Shown here piece after piece: positions 671 through 45,085 of a stretch of DNA of 64,000 nucleotides (position 1 is the first letter of the stretch; every line of letters starts with the position of its first letter). The notes under the pieces were generated by a model that saw nothing but the letters and a program-made list of their open reading frames with translations, was not told where the DNA came from and searched no databases. The position numbers and the translations under genes were made by a program. Source of the stretch: Leucoraja ocellata (Eukaryota); NCBI GenBank assembly GCA_036785375.1, contig JAWMAR010000001.1, forward strand, positions 23,126,001 to 23,190,000. The letters run 5' to 3'.

Positions 671-1034
671 TCAATTTACTTTTATAAATACAAAAAGGCC
701 TCGTCCGTGGAAATAATAATTTCATCAGATATAGGAGCAGAATTAAGCCATTCGGCCCATCAAGTCTACTCCGCCATCCAATGTAATGGCAAAGTTACCA
801 AAAAAACAGAAGATCCCAGCACAAGATTGGCTGAACACAAGACGCCCATTAGATTAGGCTGAACATAAGATGCCCATTAAATGGGCTACATTGGTACATG
901 TGTCTCTGTGTTGCAATTTGATCCCAGCTAAAATTGCAAGTGTGTCGTTTAGTCACATCTCATGAGTTCAATGGTAAGTCACTAACAGAAGGAACAACTT
1001 CCACTATGCAACCTGAGCACCAAGTATTCCTTAG

Positions 1035-1823
1035 TCTTAAAGCCCTCCCTTTCTTCCTCGACCACAGAACCAACCAATTCCCATCTACTGATACTCTCCT
1101 CCGTCTACAACTTTTCGTTTGACACCTCCTATTTCCTCCAAATACAAGGTGTAGTTATGGTCAAGTGCATGGGCCCAAGCTATGCCTGCCTCTTTGTAGG
1201 GTACGTCGAACAATCATTGTTCGAGGCGTACCATGGCCCTATCCCCGAACTCTACCTCTGCTACATCGACGACTGCATTGGTGCTGCCTCCTACACCCAT
1301 ACACAACTCACTGACTTCATTCATTTCACCACTAACTTCCATCCAGCACTCAAATACAACTGGACCTTTACCAACATTTCCCTACCATTTCTAGACCTCA
1401 CCATCTCCATCGCAGGTGATTGACTACTGCCCGACATCTCCTATAAACCCACTGACTCCCATGGCTATCTGGACTACACTTCTTCCCACCCTGCTTCCTG
1501 CAAGGACTCCATCCCCTACTCCCAATTCCTCCATCTATGCCGCATCTGCACCCAGGATGAGGTGTTCCACACCAGGGCATCGGAGATGCACTCATTCTTC
1601 AGGGAACGGGGGTTCCCCTCTTCTACTATAGATGAGGCTCTCACCAGGGTCTCTTCAATACCCCATAACTCTGCTCTTACTCCCCATCCCCCCAACTCGT
1701 AACAAGAACAGAACCTCACCTTCCACCCTACCAGCCGTCACATACAACAAATATACCTCCGACATTTTCGCCACCTCCAACGGGATGCCACCACTGGCCA
1801 AATCTTCTCATCTCCTCCCCTGG
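1035..1823 (+). mobile_element. Penelope-like element RT fragment (frameshifted)
   Basis: MGPSYACLFVGYVEQ, YIDD, LPFLDL, KPTDSHGYLDYTSSHP and IPYSQF spread over frames. Confidence 0.85.
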
Positions 1824-3140
1824 CTGCATGACTATGAGCACAAATATTATTTAAACTATTTCTGCTCCAACAAGAATAATCCTAATTTCTTCAATCTTTT
1901 ATCCTTGGTATAAATCTAGTCAGTTGCTACGCCACTACATAATTTAGTATAGGCCACTGATTTTGTCTCTAAAATGAGATGCCACATAAACTCGATACAA
2001 TTCTTCAGCCGTGGCTTAACCAGTAATTTGCAAAACTGTTTGCATATTTTATGCTTTTGTACCCTACACCTCAATGTAAAAAGCCGAGTATCCAACCTGC
2101 TTTTGCATCCCAACCCACTCCTATGTGAACTCGTACCTCTTTAAAATTGTACTTTTTAGTTTGTTTTAGTTTTATATAAATTTATAGATAAAATTATATG
2201 GATTTATTTAATGAAAAAAAGGGACATTATTTTTTCAATAAAAATTCCATCTTTCTTGTTCAACTGAGAACACCTCTATTTCAGCAACATTCACAGCGGT
2301 TAAAGGAAAAAATATACTACTTAAATATTTTATACGTTCAATGTCCACTGATTGAAAGGGATTCTATCTCTCAAAACCATTAGCTAAAAACATCTCCTCA
2401 ATCTGCCATAGACATGCTATTCTACTGCTACAATAACATTCCAGAAATGTCTCCTACATCGACCCATATGAGGTTAAGTGTCTAATATCCAACAAGGATA
2501 ATAGTTTAACTCCAGATCCTGGATCATCTGATTAAAGGTTATGATGGAAATCCATATGTAGTATGGGCATTTGTAACTATTACTGGACACTAGCACTACA
2601 AAGGAACCAGTTTTTGATGTCAGATTTCATCTAATACAAATTGGAGCTGTATTTTGTACATAAGATTGACTTCTGATTTAGCATTTCTTGAGTTTTATAA
2701 TTAAAGTACCATTCTGAATTGGTATCCTCAGGCTTCCTGCATTGTAATCAGTGCTATAACAAAGGCCCAGCATTTCAGACCCTCTGGTGAAGCAGCTAAG
2801 TCTTGGTGTAGCTTTGCCAGATATCTACATCAAGCCTGTGGTCTCCTCATTGCATACTTTTGGACCCACAGTACACCCAATTTTAACGCCTGTGCAGATT
2901 CCCAGCTTCAACATTTTTGCTGTCCCTTTATAATCAGAGATGTAATAACAGATAAAATATACTTTAGGAGTAATGCCAACTGAGTTGGGAATTATTGCCG
3001 CAGCTTAGAATTATATTTTATAAAATAGCCAACCTCTATTGATCAAAAGCTCAATTTAAAGAACTAGTAGTTTCATTGACTCAGTCAGAGTCATGTTAAA
3101 TACAACACCGAAATTTCAAACTATTATACTTTTACAGCTG

Positions 3141-3146
3141 TTTATT
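3141..3146 (-). promoter_or_regulatory. Candidate polyadenylation signal AATAAA for the recombinase exon
   Basis: tttatt on the plus strand, ~135 nt after the TGA at 3281. Confidence 0.5.
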
Positions 3147-3150
3147 TCAG

Positions 3151-3152
<2 letters not shown>

Positions 3153-3197
<45 letters not shown>
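3153..3197. repeat. (TA)n microsatellite in the predicted 3' UTR
   Basis: About 20 TA units seen directly. Confidence 0.95.
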
Positions 3198-3199
<2 letters not shown>

Positions 3200-3280
3200 T
3201 CATTCATTTAAAACAGTACATTGCTAATTTAAAATATTTTTCTGTGCAGTTATTGAATTTCATTCATTGTGCCACTCAGT

Positions 3281-4618
3281 TCATGTGAGCGGTTCCTGCT
3301 TTATGACACAGTTCTGCAAGACGATCCGACTAGTTTTCCCAGAAGTAACGTTGGGATTCAAAGTCACTATGTTCCCTGTGGAAGCTGAAGTTCCTGGTTG
3401 TTGTTCATGTACTGCAGAACTTGGAGCTGTGTAAATGTAGTTGAATCCCGCATTGTCTAACACGTCGGACCAGGCCCGGTACTGAAATTCAGCAGCTCCC
3501 CAGTAGTTTCTAATGCTGGATTCTGAACGGTGTCCTGTAAGTGCCATGATCTCTCTTGCTCCGAGGCCTGCATCGCACAGGAGACGGACTGTCGTAGTTC
3601 TGAGTGAATGGTTGGTGTACCTCTGGGACAGTCTGGCAGCAATACTGATTCTAGGCATCATGCTTCCCAGATAATTAACCCCCATCGGCTCTCGCTTATA
3701 CCAGACAGGTTGTTCACGTAACTGTTCTGGTGTTAATTTTAGAGGATGAAGATAAAAGGCAGGAGGTTCAGGTGGCAGCTTAGATATATAAAGCTCAAGT
3801 GAGATGACCGGACAGTTTGCATCTCCTGGCATATCGTACATCCGCCCCAGTTTCAACGGGTCCTCGCGGCTCCTACGTTTTCCAGTGTACTTCTGCACTG
3901 CATAGCGTCTTCCATTGGGATCTCGCTTAATAACGAAAGCGTCCGGAGGGAGGTCCCGAAGGATTTCCCGTCCACGCTTGGCAAAGTGCAACTGCAGGTC
4001 AAACCAGACTTTATTCACGAGTGCAAGAGGTGTATGGAGTCCCAGAACCCCAGATGTTCTGATCTTTCGAAGGTCGTCTGCATTGATTGGGGGGTGATGA
4101 TTTGTCTCATCCTTCCCTTGGTTTCTTAGTATTTTAAGCACTCCCAGAAACACACTATTGGCACTGCTGAATTCCTTATCCTGCATCAGGCAGATCTGCT
4201 GGCTATGAGGAGGCATCTTAAGGTGCCTGTTTAAACCAGCTCGGATCGATTTATAACTGGAAATACTATAAGTGTTACCATCATGATTCCTCACAGTGCC
4301 GTAAAACTCTCTCAAAATACCATTAAGTTCTTCAACTGATATACTTTCAAATTTATCATCTTTTCCCTTTTCAATAAGCCACTGTTTTAGGATATTCACT
4401 GCCCAATCTGTCTGCTTGCGTGTGTTCTTCTCGTTGCGCTCCTCCTCGAGCCCAATAAGATCATCTTCTGTCACACTAACATGCCGTCTAGCGCCGTCTA
4501 AAAGCTCGTCACTGGCAACGTGTTCATCTGTCATTTGGTCCTCAAAACTGAGCAGAGTGTTGCCGTCGAAAATGCCAAAGGTGTAGAGTGGGGAGTGAGA
4601 CGCTGTTTTGTCGGACAG
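3281..4618 (-). CDS. Crypton-derived tyrosine recombinase (DUF3504-like), predicted alternative terminal exon of ATF7IP
   Basis: 445 open codons (417 from internal Met 4534). Motifs NTRKQTDWAV, YSISSYKSIRAGLNRHL, FAKRGRE, YTNHSLRTT, LTGHRSESSIRNY. Phase-0 acceptor ttactccgcaattcacag (AG at 4620-4619). Confidence 0.9.
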   Translation of the reverse strand: MSDKTASHSPLYTFGIFDGNTLLSFEDQMTDEHVASDELLDGARRHVSVTEDDLIGLEEERNEKNTRKQTDWAVNILKQWLIEKGKDDKFESISVEELNGILREFYGTVRNHDGNTYSISSYKSIRAGLNRHLKMPPHSQQICLMQDKEFSSANSVFLGVLKILRNQGKDETNHHPPINADDLRKIRTSGVLGLHTPLALVNKVWFDLQLHFAKRGREILRDLPPDAFVIKRDPNGRRYAVQKYTGKRRSREDPLKLGRMYDMPGDANCPVISLELYISKLPPEPPAFYLHPLKLTPEQLREQPVWYKREPMGVNYLGSMMPRISIAARLSQRYTNHSLRTTTVRLLCDAGLGAREIMALTGHRSESSIRNYWGAAEFQYRAWSDVLDNAGFNYIYTAPSSAVHEQQPGTSASTGNIVTLNPNVTSGKTSRIVLQNCVIKQEPLT

Positions 4619-5862
4619 CTGTGAATTGCGGAGTAATACGTAATTTTTTGATACAATGCTTTAAATTTTTTTATTAAATTAAAAACAAAGAAAAATTATC
4701 CAGCAGGTGACGTTCATTAGGCAAAAGTATCTCAATACTCAACAGCGCACACCCTATTAACCACTCACTTTCACACATTGCAAACCATGGCATTACATGT
4801 TGTCACAGAAATAGCCAAATTACGGTTTGGTTTGGGGAAAAACAAAACAAAAGAATGCTAAATCTCTTGCATAGCTAGATGATCTTTCAACTGCTGAGAA
4901 CCTATGAATTCAAATGGAGAATACATCCTATTCATGCATGTATTCTCTAGAAGAACTGGAAAAAACTTTATTGTTGCACTGAAGAGAATCTGTAATAGAA
5001 ATAGGAAAAGGCTTACAATTTCTGACAAACCTTGGCTGACTGAACCTCTGTGCCAGCGCTCTGATCGGCTTCAGCAGCGAGTTACCCAGATGCAGGACAA
5101 GGTTTTCATAAGAGGCAGAGCAGCAATGAGAATTACATCAGGATACTCCACCACACTGAAGCATTTGGAAAACTTTGTGCAGCCAACTTTTTGAAGAATG
5201 AATGAGGAATGCAGTCATATTCTGCTAATAGGCTCTGGTTTCATTTAGATAATCTTTCCAGTTTATTTAGAGAATGCACAAGACTTCCCCTCTCACTCTT
5301 TCTGTGTTATTTTTCAACCAAATGGGTTGCAGATCTGTCTTCTTTCTGACACGGGAAAGTTATAAATGCATAACATAATGCAGATAAGCCATCTGCCCTC
5401 CCCACAGTTTATTCTCTTTGGGTGCTTGTGGAAGTCTTCCACCATCTACCATCGTAAATCTTTATACTGAATGATTCATAATTTTAACATCCATTATACT
5501 AATGAACAAAAGTGGCATCTTTTTCTGATTAGATCCCCTGTGGATTTGACAAAAATGGAAATTTATCAAAGAAAGGCTATATTATAATCCACTGTTAGTG
5601 GAGAGGTTATCATGAAGAGCATGTCACTCCTTAAAGCTCTAGTGGCCCAGCATTGCAAGCAGATGCATGTCCAACCAACCTGAGAATGGAATGATATGAC
5701 GATTCTGATTGATCATATTCCTTTACAAACAACAACCAAATTCAACCCAAAAGGTATAATTCTACTATCTTTCTAGCCACATCTTTAGAGCTAGTCGGCA
5801 GTTGCCCATCAGTGGGCTATAATTGAAGTTATTAAGTGCCATGATAAATGTGCTGTACCCAC

Positions 5863-5954
5863 CTGGTTGCCACTAGGAGAAGTTTTCTTAATGGCTGGCG
5901 ATTCTCCAGGAACTGCTGTAGAAAGTCTCTGGGTGCCCTGACTGAGGCTACTTT
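5863..5954 (-). CDS. ATF7IP: ATF7IP 92-nt exon (ESSLSQGTQRLSTAVPGESPAIKKTSPSGNQ)
   Basis: Acceptor tttaccccattaacag, donor CAG|gtgggt, phase 1 to 0. The E...KK...Q pattern resembles the mammalian exon preceding the SIM exon. Confidence 0.8.
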
Positions 5955-6669
5955 CTGTTAATGGGGTAAATGCAATTCATTAATGTTTCAGCTTAACACA
6001 AGAATGTCAAGAGACAAGTTTTTTTAAGCGTTTCCTTTCAAAGGTTCTTTGTTATATATTGTTATACATCTTCTGCACACCTTCTAAGTTATGTACTTAC
6101 ATAAATATATATGCCGTTTCTAATTTGATCTACATCTGGATGCAGAAGCTATATAACTGGTACATCATGAAAGCATTGTTTCCTTTCTGATTTCCTGGCA
6201 ATGAACAGTACATTTTTAGCATTTTCTATTTTTTTGTTTAATTCCAAAGATCTCATGTACATTGTAACCCACTTTACTGACATTCTAATAATAGGTCGTT
6301 ATACAGCCAAAACTAATGCACCTCAATTGAAAAGTTCACATAAGCAAAGTTAAGTGTTAGCTATAATTGCTGTGTCTTCATCCTTTCATTCCCAAACTGT
6401 CAATTTTAAACGGCTAATGAGTTTCAAAACCAGTTCAGGCCATCAGTTTTGAATAAACCAGAATTCAATCCACTCAGTGGGAGTAGGAGGCAGAGGTGCA
6501 TAGAATCCATTTCATAAAAATAAAGGCAACACATTTAGACCGCATACAATTGTAACATCACTCAGACAAACTTCTACAAGTTTCTGATAGCTTATGCATC
6601 CAGGAATCATAAAGCTCGTAAGGTTGGCAATTGTTTTTATGCCAGTTCCTTGAAACAACTAGTTAATAG

Positions 6670-8681: not shown

Positions 8682-9368
8682 CTGTTCTGGATGGTCCTAT
8701 ATTGGTGGCATCTGAGCTGGATGTTAATGGTTGACCTGATGACACAGAAACTAGTCCTTGGCCGTAAGTCTGTGATGGCCTTGGTGGTAATCCAGGCCTA
8801 GTAGTATTTGAAGGGCTAAAATGACCTGGAGAATTCAAAGATTGCTGTGACGTCCGGGAAATTTGTGAAACCGGTGAAAGAACAGTCTGGGAACTAATCA
8901 CAGGAGCAGTCTGATTGGAAATAGCATTACTTATCTGCATTGATCCCATAGTTGCAGGAGACTTCCTCTGCACTCCCGGGCTTGGCAAAGAAGTACTAGC
9001 ACCATTTGCTTTTGTTACATTCGGCATTTGTGGTGCAAGTGGTTTTGGGAGGATGTTAAGCGTAGGTTGGGATTGAACAGATAGAAACTCAAGTCCGGGT
9101 TGCTGGTTGGTCATCAAGTTGTTTGTTGAGGCCTGTAGAAGCTGAGGTTGGGAAGACATTGCCACCGGAACCGTAAGTAATACTGGCACTGACTGTAGAG
9201 ATACTGGAATAGGCTGGTTACTGCCAGAGGCTGGCACCGACTGATTGGTTCCTGCCACCGCTGCAGTTGCTGGGAGCACAGGAGTAACCACAGCACCAGA
9301 TGACCCTGTATTCTGAGGTTTCGTTTGTCCGCCAACTACCTGAGGTGGTGTGAGGTTTGTGACAATAC
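8682..9368 (-). CDS. ATF7IP: ATF7IP 687-nt S/T/P/Q-rich exon
   Basis: Contains PVSLQSVPVLLTVPVAMSSQPQLLQ and EFLSVQS, matching ATF7IP; acceptor ctattgttacag, donor ACAG|gtaaaa (phase 1 to 1). Confidence 0.93.
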
Positions 9369-10412
9369 CTGTAACAATAGAACAGCCTTCAATTAGAATC
9401 TATAAATATAGATATACTTCCCAGTCCAGTTTCTTCCAAAGGTTTCATTCATGCACCCTAATGGCCTTCGCCCATGGGACTGCACAAGTCTGGTGTGCAG
9501 GCAACAAGAATCAAGTGTTTTATTGTCATATATCCCAGATAGAACAATAAAATTCTTACTTGCAGCAGCACGACAGAATATGTAAACATAGTACTCCGCA
9601 AACAGTATAGTAAACGACTAAAAAGTGATGGCCTTCAGTATGACTGATCCTACGGAAAGCAAAACATCAGTGCCAATTCAGATCTATTATACAACCCTTT
9701 GGATCCCCATTGCACAGCAAAATGGGGCAGATTTAATGACATGGCAACACACCAAGACCCAACTCACGCTGGTGCTTTCACAGTAGACATTAAAGCAGGT
9801 CATTATTCTATGTCTTTAGAGCCAAAAACACAACAATAGCGGCACATAACTGGAATACAGTTAACAAGATGCCATTTTAAAAGTCATTTCTGACAGACAT
9901 CTATAAGTTCCCACAAATTAAATTTTTACAGGTTTGCACCATCTTATTCTCTTATTTGGATGGCAAAATAGAATGCAAATGTGTTAGTTGGAATAGAAAA
10001 TAATATAAATTACAAAACTTGCAATTATATCCCCAAATTAAGCATTAAATTTTTTTGCAATTTAAGGGCTTAAAATAATATTCTTCTGATTCACGAGACT
10101 GCAGTGAGTGGGCTCTTGTGAGATTCTTGGCAGTGGGCCCCTGTACGCTTTAGGTGGGGTGGGCCTTTGTGTGCTTCCAAGGGAGCACGATACACTGGGC
10201 CTCTGTGAGGTAGATGCTGAACCACTGGAATTTCCAAATAATTAGAAAGTGGACTATTAAAGAGTTTTACTGTAACTAACATACTTGGCAAGCATGGTAG
10301 GTCTTGTTGGGGTTAGATGAAAGGGGGAAATAGTGTAAATGATGTGCTCTTAGTACAGTCACAAGATACCACGGAACAGCACTGAATGTTGCAATAAATA
10401 GTTTACAAGTAC

Positions 10413-14982: not shown

Positions 14983-16387
14983 AGGAGCTGTCCCACTGCA
15001 GCGACCCAATCCACGAGTTCAGAAGAGTTTGCCCTCGACTCATAGAAACATAGAAATTAGGTGCAGGAGTAGGCCATTCGGCCCTTCGAGCCTGCACCGC
15101 CATTCAATATGATCATGGCTGATCATCCAACTCAGTATCCCGTACCTGCCTTCTCTCCATACCCCCTGATCCCCTTAGCCACAAGGGCCACATCTAACTC
15201 CCTCTTAAATATAGCCAATGAACTGGCCTCAACTACCCTCTGTGGCAGAGAGTTCCAGAGATTCACCACTCTCTGTGTGAAAAAAGTTCTTCTCATCTCG
15301 GTTTTAAAGGATTTCCCCTTTATCCTTAAGCTGTGACCTGGACTTCCCTAACATCGGGAACAATCTTCCTGCATCTAGCCTGTCCAACCCCTTAAGAATT
15401 TTGTAAGTTTCTATAAGATCCCCTCTCAATCTTCTAAATTCTAGAGAGTATAAACCAAGTCTATCCAGTCTTTCTTCATAAGACAGTCCTGACATCCCAG
15501 GAATCAGTCTGGTGAACCGTCTCTGCACTCCCTCTATGGCAATAATGTCCTTCCTCAGATTTGGAGACCAAAACTGTACGCAATACTCCAGGTGTGGTCT
15601 CACCAAGACCCTGTACAACTGCAGTAGAACCTCTCTGCTCCTATACTCAAATCCTTTTGCAATGAAAGCTAACATACCATTCGCTTTCTTTACTGCCTGC
15701 TGCACCTGCATGCCTACCTTCAATGACTGGTGTACCATGACACCCAGGTCTCGCTGCACCTCCCCCTTTCCCAATCGGCCACCATTTAGATAATAGTCTG
15801 CTTTCCTGTTTTTGCCACCAAAATGGATAACCTCACATTTATCCACATTATACTGCATCTGCCAAACATTTGCCCACTCACCCAGCCTATCCAAGTCACC
15901 CTGCAGTCTCCTAGCATCCTCCTCACAGCTAACACTGCCCCCCAGCTTAGTGTCATCCGCAAACTTGGAGATATTGCCTTCAATTCCCTCATCCAGATCA
16001 TTAATATATATTGTAAATAGCTGGGGTCCCAGTACTGAGCCTTGGGGTACCCCACTAGTCACTGCCTGCCATTGTGAAAAGGACCCGTTTACTCCTACTC
16101 TTTGCTTCCTGTTTGCCAGCCAGTTCTCTATCCACATCAATACTGAACCCCCAATGCCTTGTGCTTTAAGTTTGTATACTAATCTCTTATGTGGGACCTT
16201 GTCGAAAGCCTTCTGGAAGTCCATGCTCGCAGCATGGTCGACACGATGTCCTAGGAGGTCTTTGTAACTCTCCTTCACGCTCGAGAGTAGTCCCCACGTA
16301 CTCGAGGCCTCAGCTAGGTCGCGGTGTATTTTTCAACATGCTGAAAAATGCCCACGAGTAAAAAAAGGTCGCCATGGAAAAAAATCT
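14983..16387. mobile_element. Harbinger-like MITE interrupted by the CR1 insertion
   Basis: Left end gagctgtcccact; central palindrome tttttcaacatgctgaaaaa also present in the 32717-33020 element; right TIR not seen. Confidence 0.65.
15041..16224 (-). mobile_element. 5'-truncated CR1-clade LINE with nearly intact RT C-terminal half
   Basis: DFQKAFDKVPH, GVPQGSVLGP, FADDTKL and LVRPHLEYCVQFWSP; 3' tail of (TTTCTATG)n repeats. Confidence 0.95.
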
Positions 16388-27583: not shown

Positions 27584-28673
27584 CTGGAGGACTATCATTT
27601 TTTGGTACCAGCTCTTCACTTTCTCTTTGCATCTCAATTACTGGCTCATCCTCATCTGATAAGACAAGAAATGCCTCTTCCGGCAAGCTGCCATTACATT
27701 CCTCTTTTGTTGGAGAACTACTGAGAAAAGTGTCCATTTGTTCTTCTTGCACTGGAATGTCCTTTGGTGTTGGGGATTCCACTTCAGGAACAACTTCTCG
27801 CTTGTTGGATAATTCGCTTTCCTTCTCTGGGGCCAATTTCTCCAAAATAGGAATTATTTCTTCAATTTCCAGTATGCAATTCCCAAATGATCTGCACTCA
27901 CCTGCTGTGTCTTTTACTGCATTTTCATTTTCGGTCTCTGCACACTCCATCTTAGAGCTTTCACCATCATTTTTCTCCTGCACTGATTCTATGCTACTTG
28001 ATATTGCCTCTTCACTAATATCCATTGAACTTTCATGGTCTTCCTTTTCTCTCACAGAGGAAGAAGGAGACTTTAACTTAAGGCTATTTTCATCTGGTAC
28101 ATCATCGTGATCCCTGTTTTTGTCCACAGAAGGTGGTTTCCCTTCTTCTAAAAGGCTCTGGGGTTCAGTACATGATTTAACTGCAATTAGAGAATCCTCC
28201 TTCAACACAACAATCTCTGAATTCACTGCAACATCTCCTGTGCTCTCATTATCCATCAAATTTTGGTTTTCTGCATTCTCAGTAGACGTTTGTTCATCTT
28301 CAGCAGCCGGGGGGGTTGAGTCATTTTTTTCATCTTGGGGTCTCAAATCCTTATCATCATTTGGACATTTTTCAGCAGGACTCGGTTCAGGTGTCTCATC
28401 AATGGAGTTGCCCTGTAGTTCTTCTGGACCCAGCCTCACATCATTAATGCTATCAATGTCTGTATCATCCATGCAGTTGGTATTTAGAGATATTTTGCCG
28501 TCAGAATCTCCATTTTCATGTCTACCATTACACAATTTAGTTTTGTTTTCGTCATTTGATTTTAAAAGCTCCTCTTTGCTTTTATAGACGACTTCTAACT
28601 GCTGACGGTCACTTGTGCGCATGGTTTTTCTGGCCTTAAAAACTTTTCTTGGAAGCTCTTCACTGGTATCCAT
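27584..28673 (-). CDS. ATF7IP: ATF7IP first coding exon (acidic N-terminal region); exon starts at 28683 with 10 nt of 5' UTR
   Basis: MDTSEELPRKVFKARKTMRTSDRQQLE, EEIIPILEKLAP and LPEEAFLVLSDE match remembered vertebrate ATF7IP motifs. Acceptor ttccttcttctcag; donor CCAG|gtatga (phase 1). Confidence 0.96.
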
Positions 28674-31669
28674 CTCAGAATGCCTGAGAAGAAGGAAAGA
28701 AGAAACTGTCAGTAGTGACTTGTTGACTCAACCAGCCTTACTATAAAGTCAGTGACTGCTGAGTATTTGGTTAAAAAATGCTGCAAAATGGCTGTTCATC
28801 CCAATGTAAAAAGTAAAAATAGGCAATGATTTTAAATGGATTTTTAAATGTTTGTAGTTTCTTTGCATGCTGTACGGACAATTTAAAAAAAAAAAAAATC
28901 ACTGATCAATTTCACCATTTTGCAACAAGCAAAATTCCAAAAGGGGTTTTAATTTGAGTGATTTCTCAAAGAGGTATATCTTCGTTAGGAAAATACCGAC
29001 TCCTCAGTTTAAATGCTATGATTTAGGATCAAATAATTAGTTGTAACAAATAAATGTCTAGATTTCTTCCCTTAATCCCCACAACTCACTTAACAATTTC
29101 AGATTGATAAATTCACAAATTGCTCAACATTGAATTTGATTGCTGGTCACTCCAAGACCTCATGCCTGAACTGCCCTGGATTAAATATTTATTCTATTCC
29201 TACTATAAACTTTGTACACTTAAACTGCTCAACATCCTACAAACAACTTAATCCGTCCTCTAGTCTCTCATGAGAAAAAAAACAGATGGATGGAATTCCA
29301 TCCACTTTATTTCTCACGGGTATAATGCATTCAGTGTTCCGTTTTGGATCAATTTTTTCCTAACAGCTGAAACAGTCAAATAAATTGCTAATAAACTTTA
29401 AATAAAATAAATTTGAATAACTGAGCAAAATAATGTACAACGGATGGAGCTGCTTTAGAGTTCAGCAGAGGCCTTTCTTGACTGAAATCCCATTTAACAC
29501 ATGGAGCCTCACTTATGTTATACTAAAATTGTTGCTTTCTGGGTATATTATTACCTCGCTGAGAGAGTGTAGATAAGGGATTGTGGTAGGAGAGTGAATA
29601 TTTGATTTCAACATTAAAGTGATCCCAAAATTCAGTTGAGCCACATAAGCTGCAATTCGGGGATGAAAAGAAAATTCACAATAGGTCTAAGCTATTAAAA
29701 GGAAACTGGAATAAATGCTGTGAAAACTACAACCAAATTCTATTTTGAAAATCAGGTCATTTTCCCTTTACAAGTGTGCACAAACCCTGTAGTCCTTACA
29801 TTCTTTTAAGATCCACTCCTCATTATGACAGCAGAGGGCACTCTTGCTCCCCCTTAAATAAACAGTTGTTTAGCAAAGAGAATGCAAGCAAGAGTGTGGA
29901 GCTAATTTCATTTTTCAAAATAGCTGGGGACATTTTAGGTAGGCAACAATCATGTTTCAATGCACATATTTGACTTGTTTAATTCAATAAACAAATCACC
30001 TCCTTGCAACAACAGCTAGCACACATATACTTTAAAAATGTAACATTACTTGTCGCTTCGAACTGCTTATTTCAAATAAACTCATCCCTACACTTGGTAG
30101 AATCAATTCTACTAAGAGAACTCATTCAATCAGCATGTTAAAACCTTTTAAAAGGTGCATTTTCATCCATTGAAAGCCATATTATAAAATGTGCTTGTGT
30201 ATTCTATTTGGTAGACTACAATCGCAAATCTTTCTTGGTAATGAGTGGTGCAACATTGCAGGACTTGCAACAGCTCTTTCAGGACGAGTGCCATAGCATT
30301 AGTGACTGCCACCTTCTTGAAACCTTAAATATTGAACTAATGCTGTATCAATAGAAGTATTGTCTTGTTAAGTAGATAATATGGACACTCATTTGCATTT
30401 GCTTGGTACTTGAGCAAACAGAATACAAACTCCATTTTGTCCTTGCAGAGATCCAATGACATCCTCCATCAGTCATTTCCATAACATTAACATTCCTTTC
30501 ATTCAGGTCTTGTTGCACTGAAAACAAATATTATCTTAGCTTTGAACTAGTTGCCACATGTATTCTGTCATCCTGACCTTGTGATTAGTAGTGGGAATGG
30601 AAACATTTAGCAGTGATCGTCCACTTTGCCCATAAGCACAGGTGTGGCCTTGCCACAGTAGACAAGATCTATCGTCTGGCCTGTTTACAGTAATAATGCA
30701 GCAATCAACAGCAATAAATGCAATTTACCTTGTGGCCCAACAGCAATATCAGGGGCACTGGAAATGTAATGCGTTTTCATGTAAATTAATTGTAGAGAAT
30801 TTTAATCGACAGAGATGGGTGGGAGAATTTCCACTTGGCTGGGATTTAAATTTATGTTGTTGGATCAAATTTACATATCATTTTATTTTTTCAGTTTTAG
30901 ATTACAAAATTCAGACAAAATAAGATTCTCCATTCACTGGTTACCGATCAAATGCTCAAAGTAAAATGTTAATGCAACGCATTTGAATCAGTTATTTTTT
31001 AAAACCTGCGTCACTCAGTAAATAACGAATCAGGAAACGTAATTAAAGTGGAACGATAGTTTTGAAGAAAACCCCCACCTGTTTGCAGAAGTGAAATAAC
31101 TCCAGGGACATTGGCTGCATGTAATCATGCTGCTAATCTCCCGCAAGATTTATCAAATGATCACATTGTTAGGCAATATCCTGTTTTCGCAGTTTGTAAC
31201 ATTGTTCCGCCTATTCAATATTAATGAAAAATGCAACCAACATTTGATTCCAATCCAATCTGATTTGCCCATCCCATAAAGCACCGTGAGTGCTCCACTT
31301 TCAGACCTGCAGCTGCACTGAAACATGGTTCAATGGATAAACAATTACTGTCCCAATCCTTTGTTGCATTTGATAATAAACTGTTAATTATTCAAAAAAG
31401 TGACACAAAAAGCTGGAGTAACTCAGCGGGTCAGGCAGCATCTTTGGAGAAAAGGAATAGGTGACGTTTCGGGTCGAGACTCTTCTTCAGACAACTTGTC
31501 CAATGTAACCAAACACGGCTTTATTTTTAAGCTTGGAAAATTCTGGTATGTCAAGAATTCCTGATTGTGTACATAATCTTTCAAATAAACCTGCAAAAAT
31601 AATTGTCATGAATTATTTTTATTAATTTCTGCAATACAGAAAACAAGTGTAAAAATATACTGGACATAC

Positions 31670-43473: not shown

Positions 43474-45085
43474 CAGTGGCTTGCAAAAGTATTCATACCC
43501 CTTGAACTTTTCCACATTTTGTAACGCTACAACCACAAATGTAAATGTATTTTATTGGGATTTTATGTGATAGACCAACACAAAGTGGCGCATAATTGTG
43601 AAGTGGAAGGAAAATGATACTTGGTTTTCAATTCTTTTTACAAATAAAAAACTGAAAAGTGTGGCGTGCAAAAGTATTCAGCCCCCTTTACTCTGAGACC
43701 CCTAAATAAAATCCAGTGCAACCAATTACCTTCAGAAGTCACCTAATTAGTAAATAGAGTCCACTTGTGTGTAATCTAATCTCTGTATAAATACAGCTGT
43801 TCTGTGAAGGCCTCAGAGGGTTGTTAGAGAACATTAGTGAACAAACAGCATCATGAAGCCCAAGGAACACACCAGACAGGTCAGGGATAAAGTTGTGGAA
43901 AAGTTTAAAGCAGGGTTAGGTTATAAAAAAAAAACCCCAAGCTTTGAACATCTCACGGAGCACTGTTCAATCCATCATCCGAAAATGGAAAGAGTATGGC
44001 ACAACTGCAAACCTACCAAGACATGGCCGTCCACCTAAACTGACAGGCTGGGCAAGGACAGCATTGATCAGAGAAGCAGCCAAGAGGCCCATAGTAACTT
44101 TGGAGGAGCTGCAGAGATCCACAGCTCAGGTGGGAGAATCTGTCCACAGGACAACTATTAGTTGTGCACTCCACAAATCGGGCCTTTATGGAAGAGTGGC
44201 AAGAAGAAAGCCATTGCTGAAAAAAAAAAGCCATAAGAAGTCCCGTTTGCAGTTTGCCACAAGCCATGTGGGGGACACAGCAAACATGTGGAGGAAGGTG
44301 CTCTGGTCAGATGAGACCAAAATTGAAGTTTTTGGCCTAAATGCTATGTGTGGCAGAAAACTAACACTGCACATCACCCTGAACATACCATCCCCACTGT
44401 GAAACATGGTGGTGGCAGCATCATGCTGTGGGGATGCTTTTCTTCAGCAAGGACAGGGAAGCTGGTCAGAGTTGATGGGAAGATGGATGGAGCCAAATAC
44501 AGGGCAATCTTGGAAGAATACCTGTTAGTCTGCAAAAAACTTGAGACTGGGGTGGAGGTTCACCTTCCAGCAGGACAACGACCCTAAACATACAGCCAGA
44601 GTTACAATGGAATGGTTTAGAACAAAGCATATTCATGTGTTAGAATGGCCCAGTCAAAGTCCAGACCTAAATCCAATTGAGAATCTCTGGCAAGAGTTGA
44701 AAATTGCTGTTCACAGATGCTCTCCATCCAATCTGACTGAGCTTGAGCTATTTTGCAAAGAAGAATGGGCAAAATGCCAGTCTCTAGATGTGCAAAGCTG
44801 GTAGAGACATACCCTAACACCCTTGCAGCAGTAATTGCAGCGAAAGGTGGTTCTACAAAGTATTGACTCAGGGGGGCTGAATAATTTTGCACGCCACACT
44901 TTCCAGTTTTTTTATTTGTAAAAATATTTGAAAACCATGTATCATTTTCCTTCCACTTCACAATTATGCACCACTTTGTGTTGGTCTATCACATAAAATC
45001 CCAATAAAATACATTTACGTTTGTGGTTGTAACGTGACAAAATGTGGAAAAGTTCAAGGGGTATGAAAACTTTTGCAAGCCACTG
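43474..45085 (+). mobile_element. Full-length Tc1 transposon (IR/DR type) with frameshifted DD34E transposase
   Basis: ~210-bp TIRs starting CAGTGGCTTGCAAAAGT, TA flanks; [15 protein letters not shown] and [11 protein letters not shown] motifs; paired-like HTH with GRPPKL. Confidence 0.96.

Follow-up and report, generated by a model that had tools for sequence, protein, structure and literature searches.

Recombinase exon at the ATF7IP locus

The window, i.e., the whole stretch of 64,000 nucleotides of Leucoraja ocellata DNA that was analysed, contained on its minus strand a stop-to-stop ORF of 459 codons (3281 - 4660). Within this ORF, a Crypton-derived tyrosine recombinase exon of 445 codons plus stop (3281 - 4618) was recognized as a predicted alternative last coding exon of ATF7IP, based on the ORF itself, Pfam matches, tblastn, a phase-0 splice acceptor (4619 - 4640), and its presence in single copy. 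Searches by tblastn with four chondrichthyan orthologue proteins retrieved ATF7IP exons over 28682 - 5860 and ended in the recombinase ORF, which was matched with 87 - 91% identity. These exons, all located on the minus strand, comprised a first large coding exon (27588 - 28682, approximate; ORF and tblastn), three exons encoding the start of the SETDB1-binding domain ATF7IP_BD, which is retained in the fusion (24429 - 24277, 22276 - 22127, and 19227 - 19129, approximate), an upstream exon (8682 - 9372, 5' end approximate; tblastn) that was joined to the 5954 exon in five reads of run X12, and the last shared ATF7IP exon (5863 - 5954). The phase-0 donor of the latter is compatible with either the recombinase exon or the canonical exon encoding the SUMO-binding motif (SIM). 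This canonical SIM exon lies about 14 kb beyond the 5863 donor (L010:1709 downward) and is followed by the canonical FNIII exon (L011:6963-6547), both outside the window. The recombinase ORF is hence intronic, on the same strand as ATF7IP and between its central exons and its SIM/FNIII exons, and the recombinase exon fits in phase as the last exon of ATF7IP, replacing the SIM and the FNIII domain.

The Q|LS junction at the recombinase acceptor was identical in the gene models of chimaera, sharks, a ray, the tailed frog, turtles, and birds. Bird models displayed extra acceptors differing by one residue, and a single duck species had as many as three alternative acceptors; these one-residue variants presumably derive from RNA-seq introns. 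The Met codon at 4534, from which residues are numbered here, is probably not the start, and the reading frame most likely opens at the splice acceptor (4619/4618). A stand-alone gene starting from Met 4534 is disfavoured, as the 28 codons before this Met are conserved and are joined to ATF7IP in the orthologue models.

At the DNA level, the recombinase exon had one match in the genome, i.e., it is single-copy, and at the protein level nine matches were retrieved, the other eight being paralogues with 26 - 40% identity. Within 2000 - 6000, the search for terminal repeats flanking the ORF yielded a TA run and otherwise nothing beyond short or chance-like repeats; Crypton termini can be as short as 4 - 6 bp (PMC3212892). 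An AATAAA hexamer on the minus strand (3146 - 3141), past the TA run and about 135 bases after the stop codon, may serve the recombinase isoform as polyadenylation signal. Ordinary repeats were present in introns as well, namely a reverse transcriptase fragment (RVT_1; 15304 - 16332, minus strand; Pfam E 5e-23) and a Tc1/mariner transposase fragment (43920 - 44402, plus strand; Pfam E 1e-21). A broken frame with a YIDD-like stretch (986 - 1800, plus strand) resembled a retroelement reverse transcriptase fragment, its part 986 - 1420 being without a Pfam match.

Orthologues of the recombinase exon

The window protein was 87% identical to the chimaera protein, the nearest non-orthologues being 42 - 48% identical, and most of the best 120 of 123 long matches were named ATF7IP isoforms with DUF3504, originating from sharks, a ray, birds, turtles, and Ascaphus. 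In a quick tree of 36 chosen rows, the window protein grouped with chimaera, frog, turtle, and bird copies in an eight-row clade (SH-aLRT 100), and the recombinase tree followed the host groups. A search for amphibian, squamate, and lungfish orthologues with the Ascaphus protein as query retrieved none among 111 matches, in which 90% clustering may hide members. No squamate, salamander, caecilian, lungfish, or mammal orthologue occurred among the named matches either, Ascaphus being the sole amphibian. This distribution suggests repeated loss of the exon, which clustering and annotation gaps could also explain.

Recombinase fold and catalytic residues

The recombinase ORF matched DUF3504 (Pfam, E 3.6e-13) and, at 24.2 bits and thus under the curated cut-off of 27.1, Phage_integrase (E 3.2e-5). 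Six-frame scanning of the window gave a single occurrence of the pattern HxxR-x(20-25)-[HW]-x8-Y. An AlphaFold2 model of the recombinase domain, based on a 116-row alignment (mean pLDDT 83.8), displayed a fold that is predicted to be complete to the C-terminal helix. Comparison of this model with Cre, as the original prediction had proposed, gave a Z score of 19.9 with 298 aligned residues at 3.5 Å over residues 25 - 362, covering the core-binding and catalytic domains of a full recombinase fold. The top match of the model in Foldseek was QRICH1 (Zincore-DNA structure, PDB 9HJT), followed by Cre entries.

Profile comparison with Cre by hhalign was weak overall (probability 27%, E 6.7e-4), and paired the residues that had been predicted to form a Cre-like R, HxxR, H/W, Y arrangement with the catalytic residues of Cre. 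All residues named in that prediction (R187, K215, K219, H309, R312, H335, and Y344) were found at those numbers counting from Met 4534. In an alignment of the window protein with 78 orthologous proteins (one per taxon, isoform duplicates dropped; bird-heavy), R187 (3974 - 3976, minus strand as for all residues below; Arg I, Cre R173) and E190 (3965 - 3967; Glu/Asp I, Cre E176) were each present in 79/79 rows. The same holds for H309 (3608 - 3610) and R312 (3599 - 3601) of the HxxR motif (3599 - 3610; His II and Arg II, Cre H289 and R292). H335 (3530 - 3532; His/Trp III, Cre W315) was found in 74/79 rows, the other five being frameshifted (four) or partial (one), and Y344 (3503 - 3505), at the position of the nucleophile (Cre Y324), in 71/79 rows. 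The spacing H309-R312-H335-Y344 (3, 23, 9) equals that of H289-R292-W315-Y324 in Cre (Table 1 of PMC2943603). Because of the Pfam matches, the unique pattern, the Cre-equal spacing, and the fold match, this active-site arrangement is not ascribed to chance.

Across seven deep lineages, 222 of the 326 core sites were invariant; given this proportion, the chance that five chosen sites are all invariant is about 0.15. On a tree of 70 taxa constructed from the host (ATF7IP) part, and with truncated rows disregarded beyond their frameshift, the seven catalytic columns (R187, E190, 221, H309, R312, H335, and Y344) underwent 0, 0, 4, 0, 0, 0, and 1 changes, respectively, two frameshift events being uncounted. 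Seven random core sites had five or fewer changes with p 0.32, and five random sites had at most one change with p 0.12. By this measure, conservation of the catalytic sites does not exceed that found elsewhere in the domain. Variation among orthologues, which the original prediction had put forward as evidence against an intact site, was found for the lysine and the tyrosine, and not for R187, E190, H309, and R312.

Catalytic lysine

The original prediction had proposed K215 (3890 - 3892) or K219 (3878 - 3880) as the catalytic lysine. Neither is the homologous residue, as Cre K201 aligned with the lysine of the family motif (S/T)-K-(N/T), corresponding to column 221, and alignment to both relatives and Cre placed an arginine in the window at this general-acid position (R221; 3872 - 3874). 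The R-H-R-H-Y set was intact in 81 of 105 non-orthologous relatives, and column 221 was Lys in all 81. Among the orthologues, position 221 was Lys in 67, Arg in 11, and Pro in one of the 79 rows, with Arg in all five chondrichthyans, five turtles, and the hoatzin, and Pro in Ascaphus; on the 70-taxon tree, this position changed four times. K215 was rejected as the catalytic lysine, since it is Lys in five orthologue rows and Arg in 74, despite its Cre-like distance of 28 from the Arg. K219, aligned to Cre R199, is an orthologue-specific lysine (77/79 rows); column 219 was gapped in 67 of the 81 intact relatives, the nearest relatives aligning without a gap. Since the loop 219 - 221 had a pLDDT below 50 in the AlphaFold2 model, K219 is treated as a possible stand-in that may substitute for the missing lysine. 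In Cre, replacement of this Lys by Arg causes an approximately 100-fold loss, with about 1% of the activity left and no recombination in vitro, and Arg occurs naturally at the lysine position in 3.8% of tyrosine recombinases (PMC2943603). Close to this loop, Q214 (3893 - 3895), located in a hairpin strand, was Leu in three related runs, which probably reflects a recent change in the L. ocellata lineage.

Natural loss of the catalytic tyrosine

All seven catalytic positions were present in most birds, and Y344 with the C-terminal helix was kept in chondrichthyans, the frog, turtles, the crocodile, and most birds. The eight rows without Y344 carried Cys (two) or Leu (one), were frameshifted (four), or were partial (one); the Leu stems from a sturgeon row that its source marks as unverified, the partial row stems from a coelacanth model, and neither was counted as a loss. 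In Cre, no substitution of the catalytic Tyr works (PMC2943603).

Two bird groups lacked the tyrosine. Columba, Patagioenas, and Caloenas had a Tyr-to-Cys substitution in common, the exon being otherwise full length, and Gallus, Tympanuchus, and Cyrtonyx had a frameshift near residue 325 in common, which removed H335 and Y344. The recombinase cores (residues 36 - 322) differed nonetheless by 2 - 4/287 among the pigeons versus 20 - 32/~370 in host exon 2, and by 2 - 4/287 among the galliforms versus 36 - 61/~358 in host exon 2 (Fisher p 1e-4 to 1e-10, four pairs tested), host exon 2 serving as a rough rate control that is not neutral. The ratio between core and exon 2 in fowl (0.07 - 0.09) equalled that of tyrosine-bearing birds (0.03 - 0.08), and was 0.08 - 0.18 in pigeons. 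Judged from these comparisons, catalysis looks dispensable in some lineages. One further row (P0009, Logan) also carried Tyr-to-Cys and clustered with a Pogoniulus protein retaining Tyr.

The stems on which the tyrosine was lost carried extra core changes (Gallus-Anas 14/287, hoatzin 12, and Columba 6, versus 2 - 5 for ordinary bird pairs). In the mousebird Colius (P0216; 24/287) and in Porphyrio (P0215; 13/287), the Tyr was kept and the residues beside H335 were altered. The extra changes on stems with a loss of Tyr or H335 fit a partial loss of function there, and some function may weaken once the C-terminal part goes. A faster change of the recombinase core (12 - 24/287) was seen in Colius and Porphyrio, as well as in Pelodiscus (P0193) and Opisthocomus (P0224). 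The first three were also altered just after H335 and the hoatzin had a frameshift of its own, and the exon seems to be decaying repeatedly across lineages.

Related DUF3504 proteins

The paralogues in the genome (L002-L009) comprised a KCTD1-like gene (two exons, 39 - 40% identity) and two KIAA1958-like genes (26 - 30% identity). The assembly contained two copies of each (C144 and C3200; twice on C166), which may be haplotype or assembly duplicates, and all were without an intact HxxR...H...Y. The predicted contrast with degenerate, domesticated DUF3504 domains was thus recovered, R-H-R-H-Y being present in the recombinase exon and the genome paralogues losing the motif at or before HxxR. The QRICH1 match ended before HxxR too. 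The galliform truncation falls approximately where the matches to the KCTD1-like paralogue (327) and QRICH1 (326) end, and fowl appear, from these alignments, to have converged on about the same truncation point.

An ATF7IP isoform of Cololabis (P0232) ended in a Crypton recombinase joined after the SIM. It belonged to a teleost Crypton clade, was not orthologous to the exon described here, and had a degenerate HxxR; either ATF7IP captured a second element independently, or the gene model is a fusion with an element next to it. Long percomorph proteins (P0225, P0227-P0230, and P0233-P0237) combined a DUF3504 recombinase with PF05699 and PF21549, some of them with PF00856 and PF02892 in addition, which we take to be a hAT dimerisation domain, a PR/SET domain, a SET domain, and a BED finger, respectively. 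Among the rows listed, the Tyr position in these fusions was mostly His or Gln, or unaligned.

Selection and transcripts

Compared with run X10, the exon displayed seven nonsynonymous and nine synonymous differences (dN/dS ~0.23; Fisher p 0.003; covering 38 of the 40 places listed for X10). Together with the 222 invariant sites, this dN/dS ratio indicates purifying selection. The junction 5863-4618 was found in no read or contig of the four runs covering 3200 - 6100. In run X12 (polyA reads, ~6% of the run), all five reads fell on the shared exon, the recombinase exon being without any. The main contig of run X1 (depth 81) had the 5863 donor spliced to the canonical exon; the X1 contigs over the recombinase exon (depth 5 - 7) extended into the intron and might stem from pre-mRNA or DNA, and run X5 is probably DNA. 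The fusion isoform is at most minor in the sampled runs.

Possible functions of the recombinase isoform

Gene models of the fusion contained ATF7IP_BD and DUF3504 and were without fn3_4, the skipped exons encoding the FNIII domain and the SIM VIDLT. The C-terminal IKQE (3293 - 3304) corresponds to psi-K-x-E, which we take to be the SUMO-acceptor consensus, and is hence a putative SUMO acceptor; psi-K-x-E was present within the last eight residues in 105/108 orthologue protein records. VIDLT matches the SIM peptide of MCAF1 (bioRxiv 10.64898/2026.08.30.748146; PMC3728336). The FNIII domain of canonical ATF7IP binds ZMYM2, MBD1, and MGA and is part of its route to chromatin, and the SETDB1-binding region of ATF7IP is required for SETDB1 function (PMC7706265).

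These data are consistent with a scenario in which a CryptonA transposon would have inserted into an ATF7IP intron before the jawed vertebrates split, and would have been domesticated as an alternative last exon. Splicing of the 5863 donor to the 4618 acceptor would yield an ATF7IP isoform that retains the SETDB1-binding domain, loses the SIM and the FNIII hub for ZMYM2, MBD1, and MGA, and gains a two-domain recombinase clamp with a SUMO-consensus tail. Its selected role would be to grip DNA or a DNA-bound complex, thereby targeting H3K9 methylation by SETDB1. The phosphate-contacting Arg and His residues would be kept for DNA binding or for the fold, strand cleavage being weak or dispensable. 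We infer that the isoform is translated in this species, binds DNA, targets SETDB1, and is SUMOylated. Based on sequence and predicted structure, the recombinase exon probably equips a SETDB1 cofactor with such a DNA-gripping module, comparable to QRICH1 and KCTD1. Against this reading stands the retention of Y344 and the C-terminal helix in 71/79 rows, as the other domesticated DUF3504 genes lost them. Also against it are the full set of catalytic positions in most birds, the extra core changes on the stems with a loss of Tyr or H335, the natural Arg of some other recombinases, the possible stand-in K219, and the 5863-4618 junction, which was found in no read or contig.

The retention of Y344 in turn speaks for a domain that is still an enzyme, its cleavage and religation (by nicking, relaxation, or site-specific recombination close to SETDB1 chromatin) being under selection in most lineages. 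Sharks would then be slow with Arg221 or use K219, and pigeons and fowl would have lost the activity and kept binding only. All five hallmark residues and E190 align with Cre, the predicted fold extends in full to the C-terminal helix, R187, E190, H309, R312, and H335 are free of substitutions on the tree of 70 taxa (truncated rows being disregarded beyond the frameshift), Tyr and K219 occur in 71/79 and 77/79 rows, the stems with Tyr loss carry extra changes, and an Arg at the lysine position is natural in 3.8% of recombinases (PMC2943603). However, the catalytic positions are no more conserved than the rest (p 0.32 and 0.12), 12/79 rows have Arg or Pro in place of the homologous Lys, which is present in 81/81 intact relatives, the core was conserved after the Tyr loss in two bird groups, and no target site was found. 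As to the predicted competence of the enzyme, the R-H-R-H-Y set and the full predicted fold thus stand, whereas the Arg at the lysine position and the loss of Tyr in some orthologues weigh against it. The corrected lysine and the conservation of the core after the loss of Tyr make a working host recombinase less likely, and from the sequence comparisons we regard selected catalysis as unlikely, albeit with a real chance of being correct. Retained cleavage would be likelier in birds with Lys221 than in the L. ocellata protein. In its full form, non-mammalian jawed vertebrates would possess an active host tyrosine recombinase or topoisomerase-like enzyme on ATF7IP that cuts and rejoins defined sites and marks them with H3K9me3, which, from the sequences compared, is rather doubtful. 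Equally tentative is the assignment, within that form, of the general acid to K219 or Arg221 in sharks and to Lys221 in birds. Site-specific excision or rearrangement of host DNA by this protein as a programmed, developmentally timed process, at which the original prediction had hinted, draws on the retained motif and the complete fold only and found no further backing. The exon is present in one copy, neither convincing terminal repeats, nor a target, nor evidence of rearrangement was found, the Lys is variable, the Tyr was lost in pigeons and fowl, and the ORF was lost in mammals (PMC3212892), making this possibility very improbable.

The exon might, in contrast, serve chiefly in protein interaction or as a switch that truncates ATF7IP to a form without SIM and FNIII, or encode a decoy by which Crypton recombinase assemblies were once poisoned, with DNA targeting and catalysis of secondary importance. 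SIM and FNIII are both lost when the exon is used, the SUMO-consensus tail is widespread among the orthologue records, the isoform was minor or absent in two RNA-like runs, and protein-protein interaction is one option named for DUF3504 by Kojima & Jurka (PMC3212892). Mere truncation would nevertheless not keep 222/326 sites invariant, phosphate-contacting Arg and His included, and, among the best candidates, the genome held no intact mobile Crypton for a decoy to oppose; this explanation is considered improbable. A recently inserted and still mobile Crypton in the intron would account for the intact, intron-free ORF with its in-frame Met 4534. Yet, the element is single-copy at both the protein and DNA level and lacks convincing termini, it occupies the same intron from chimaera to birds (gene models; PMC9004415), and its tree follows the host groups; a recent mobile copy is effectively refuted by this orthology. 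The preferred reading therefore remains that of a DNA-gripping module.

Relation to known systems

The locus, the idea of an intact site, the suggested splicing of the fusion, and the idea of retained activity have been published before. Kojima & Jurka (2011; PMC3212892) described a Crypton in an ATF7IP intron, with an intact ORF in zebra finch, a similar intact ORF in chimaera, frameshifts in chicken and turkey, and a relic in mammals, and considered that it is possibly translated as part of ATF7IP and possibly retains activity in some birds. Frith (2022; PMC9004415) dated this Crypton to the gnathostome ancestor, and an intact ORF is also known in alligator (PMC3212892; PMC9004415). The exon described here lies at the same locus and differs only in species. 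New are the correction of the lysine and the conservation of the domain after the loss of the tyrosine. The lysine, the Tyr-to-Cys substitution of pigeons, the conservation after the Tyr loss, and the swap of SIM/FNIII appear to be absent from the text of PMC3212892 and PMC9004415, figure alignments apart. No functional study of the ATF7IP recombinase isoform was found in the literature searched, most subscription journals being outside the search.

Like Cre and the tyrosine recombinase family, the exon encodes a two-domain fold with the R-E-H-R-H/W-Y positions and their spacing; unlike Cre, with which it has 11 - 14% identity, the window protein has an Arg at the K201 position, is fused to a chromatin cofactor, and has no known site. 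The exon resembles KCTD1 (long isoform), KIAA1958, QRICH1, and ZMYM2/3/4 in being a single-copy, conserved Crypton domain on a host transcription regulator. Those domesticated DUF3504 genes are without the second Arg and the Tyr according to PMC3212892, whereas the ATF7IP exon keeps both, except in fowl, hoatzin, and pigeons. QRICH1 is part of a DNA-bound complex (PDB 9HJT), and further context for DUF3504 and the long KCTD1 isoform is given in PMC13465315 and bioRxiv 10.1101/2024.06.14.599007. Mobile CryptonA elements and the fungal Glomhoppers (PMC13465315) similarly encode a DUF3504-type recombinase with R-H-R-H-Y, but are multi-copy, whereas the ATF7IP exon is one fixed host exon.

The ATF7IP exon is a published example of a domesticated tyrosine recombinase of vertebrates in which the greater part of the active site is retained. 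Natural controls are available, namely a full site in most birds, Arg at the lysine position in sharks and turtles, Cys at the tyrosine position in pigeons, and a truncation in fowl. Should the domain still cut DNA, eukaryotes would have an endogenous host recombinase linked to heterochromatin and, were the recombinase fully active, a tyrosine-chemistry counterpart of RAG that has been present since the gnathostome ancestor and was lost in mammals, fowl, and pigeons. If it only binds, a silencing cofactor would carry its own transposon-derived DNA clamp, replacing the FNIII hub that recruits ZMYM2, which is itself Crypton-derived.
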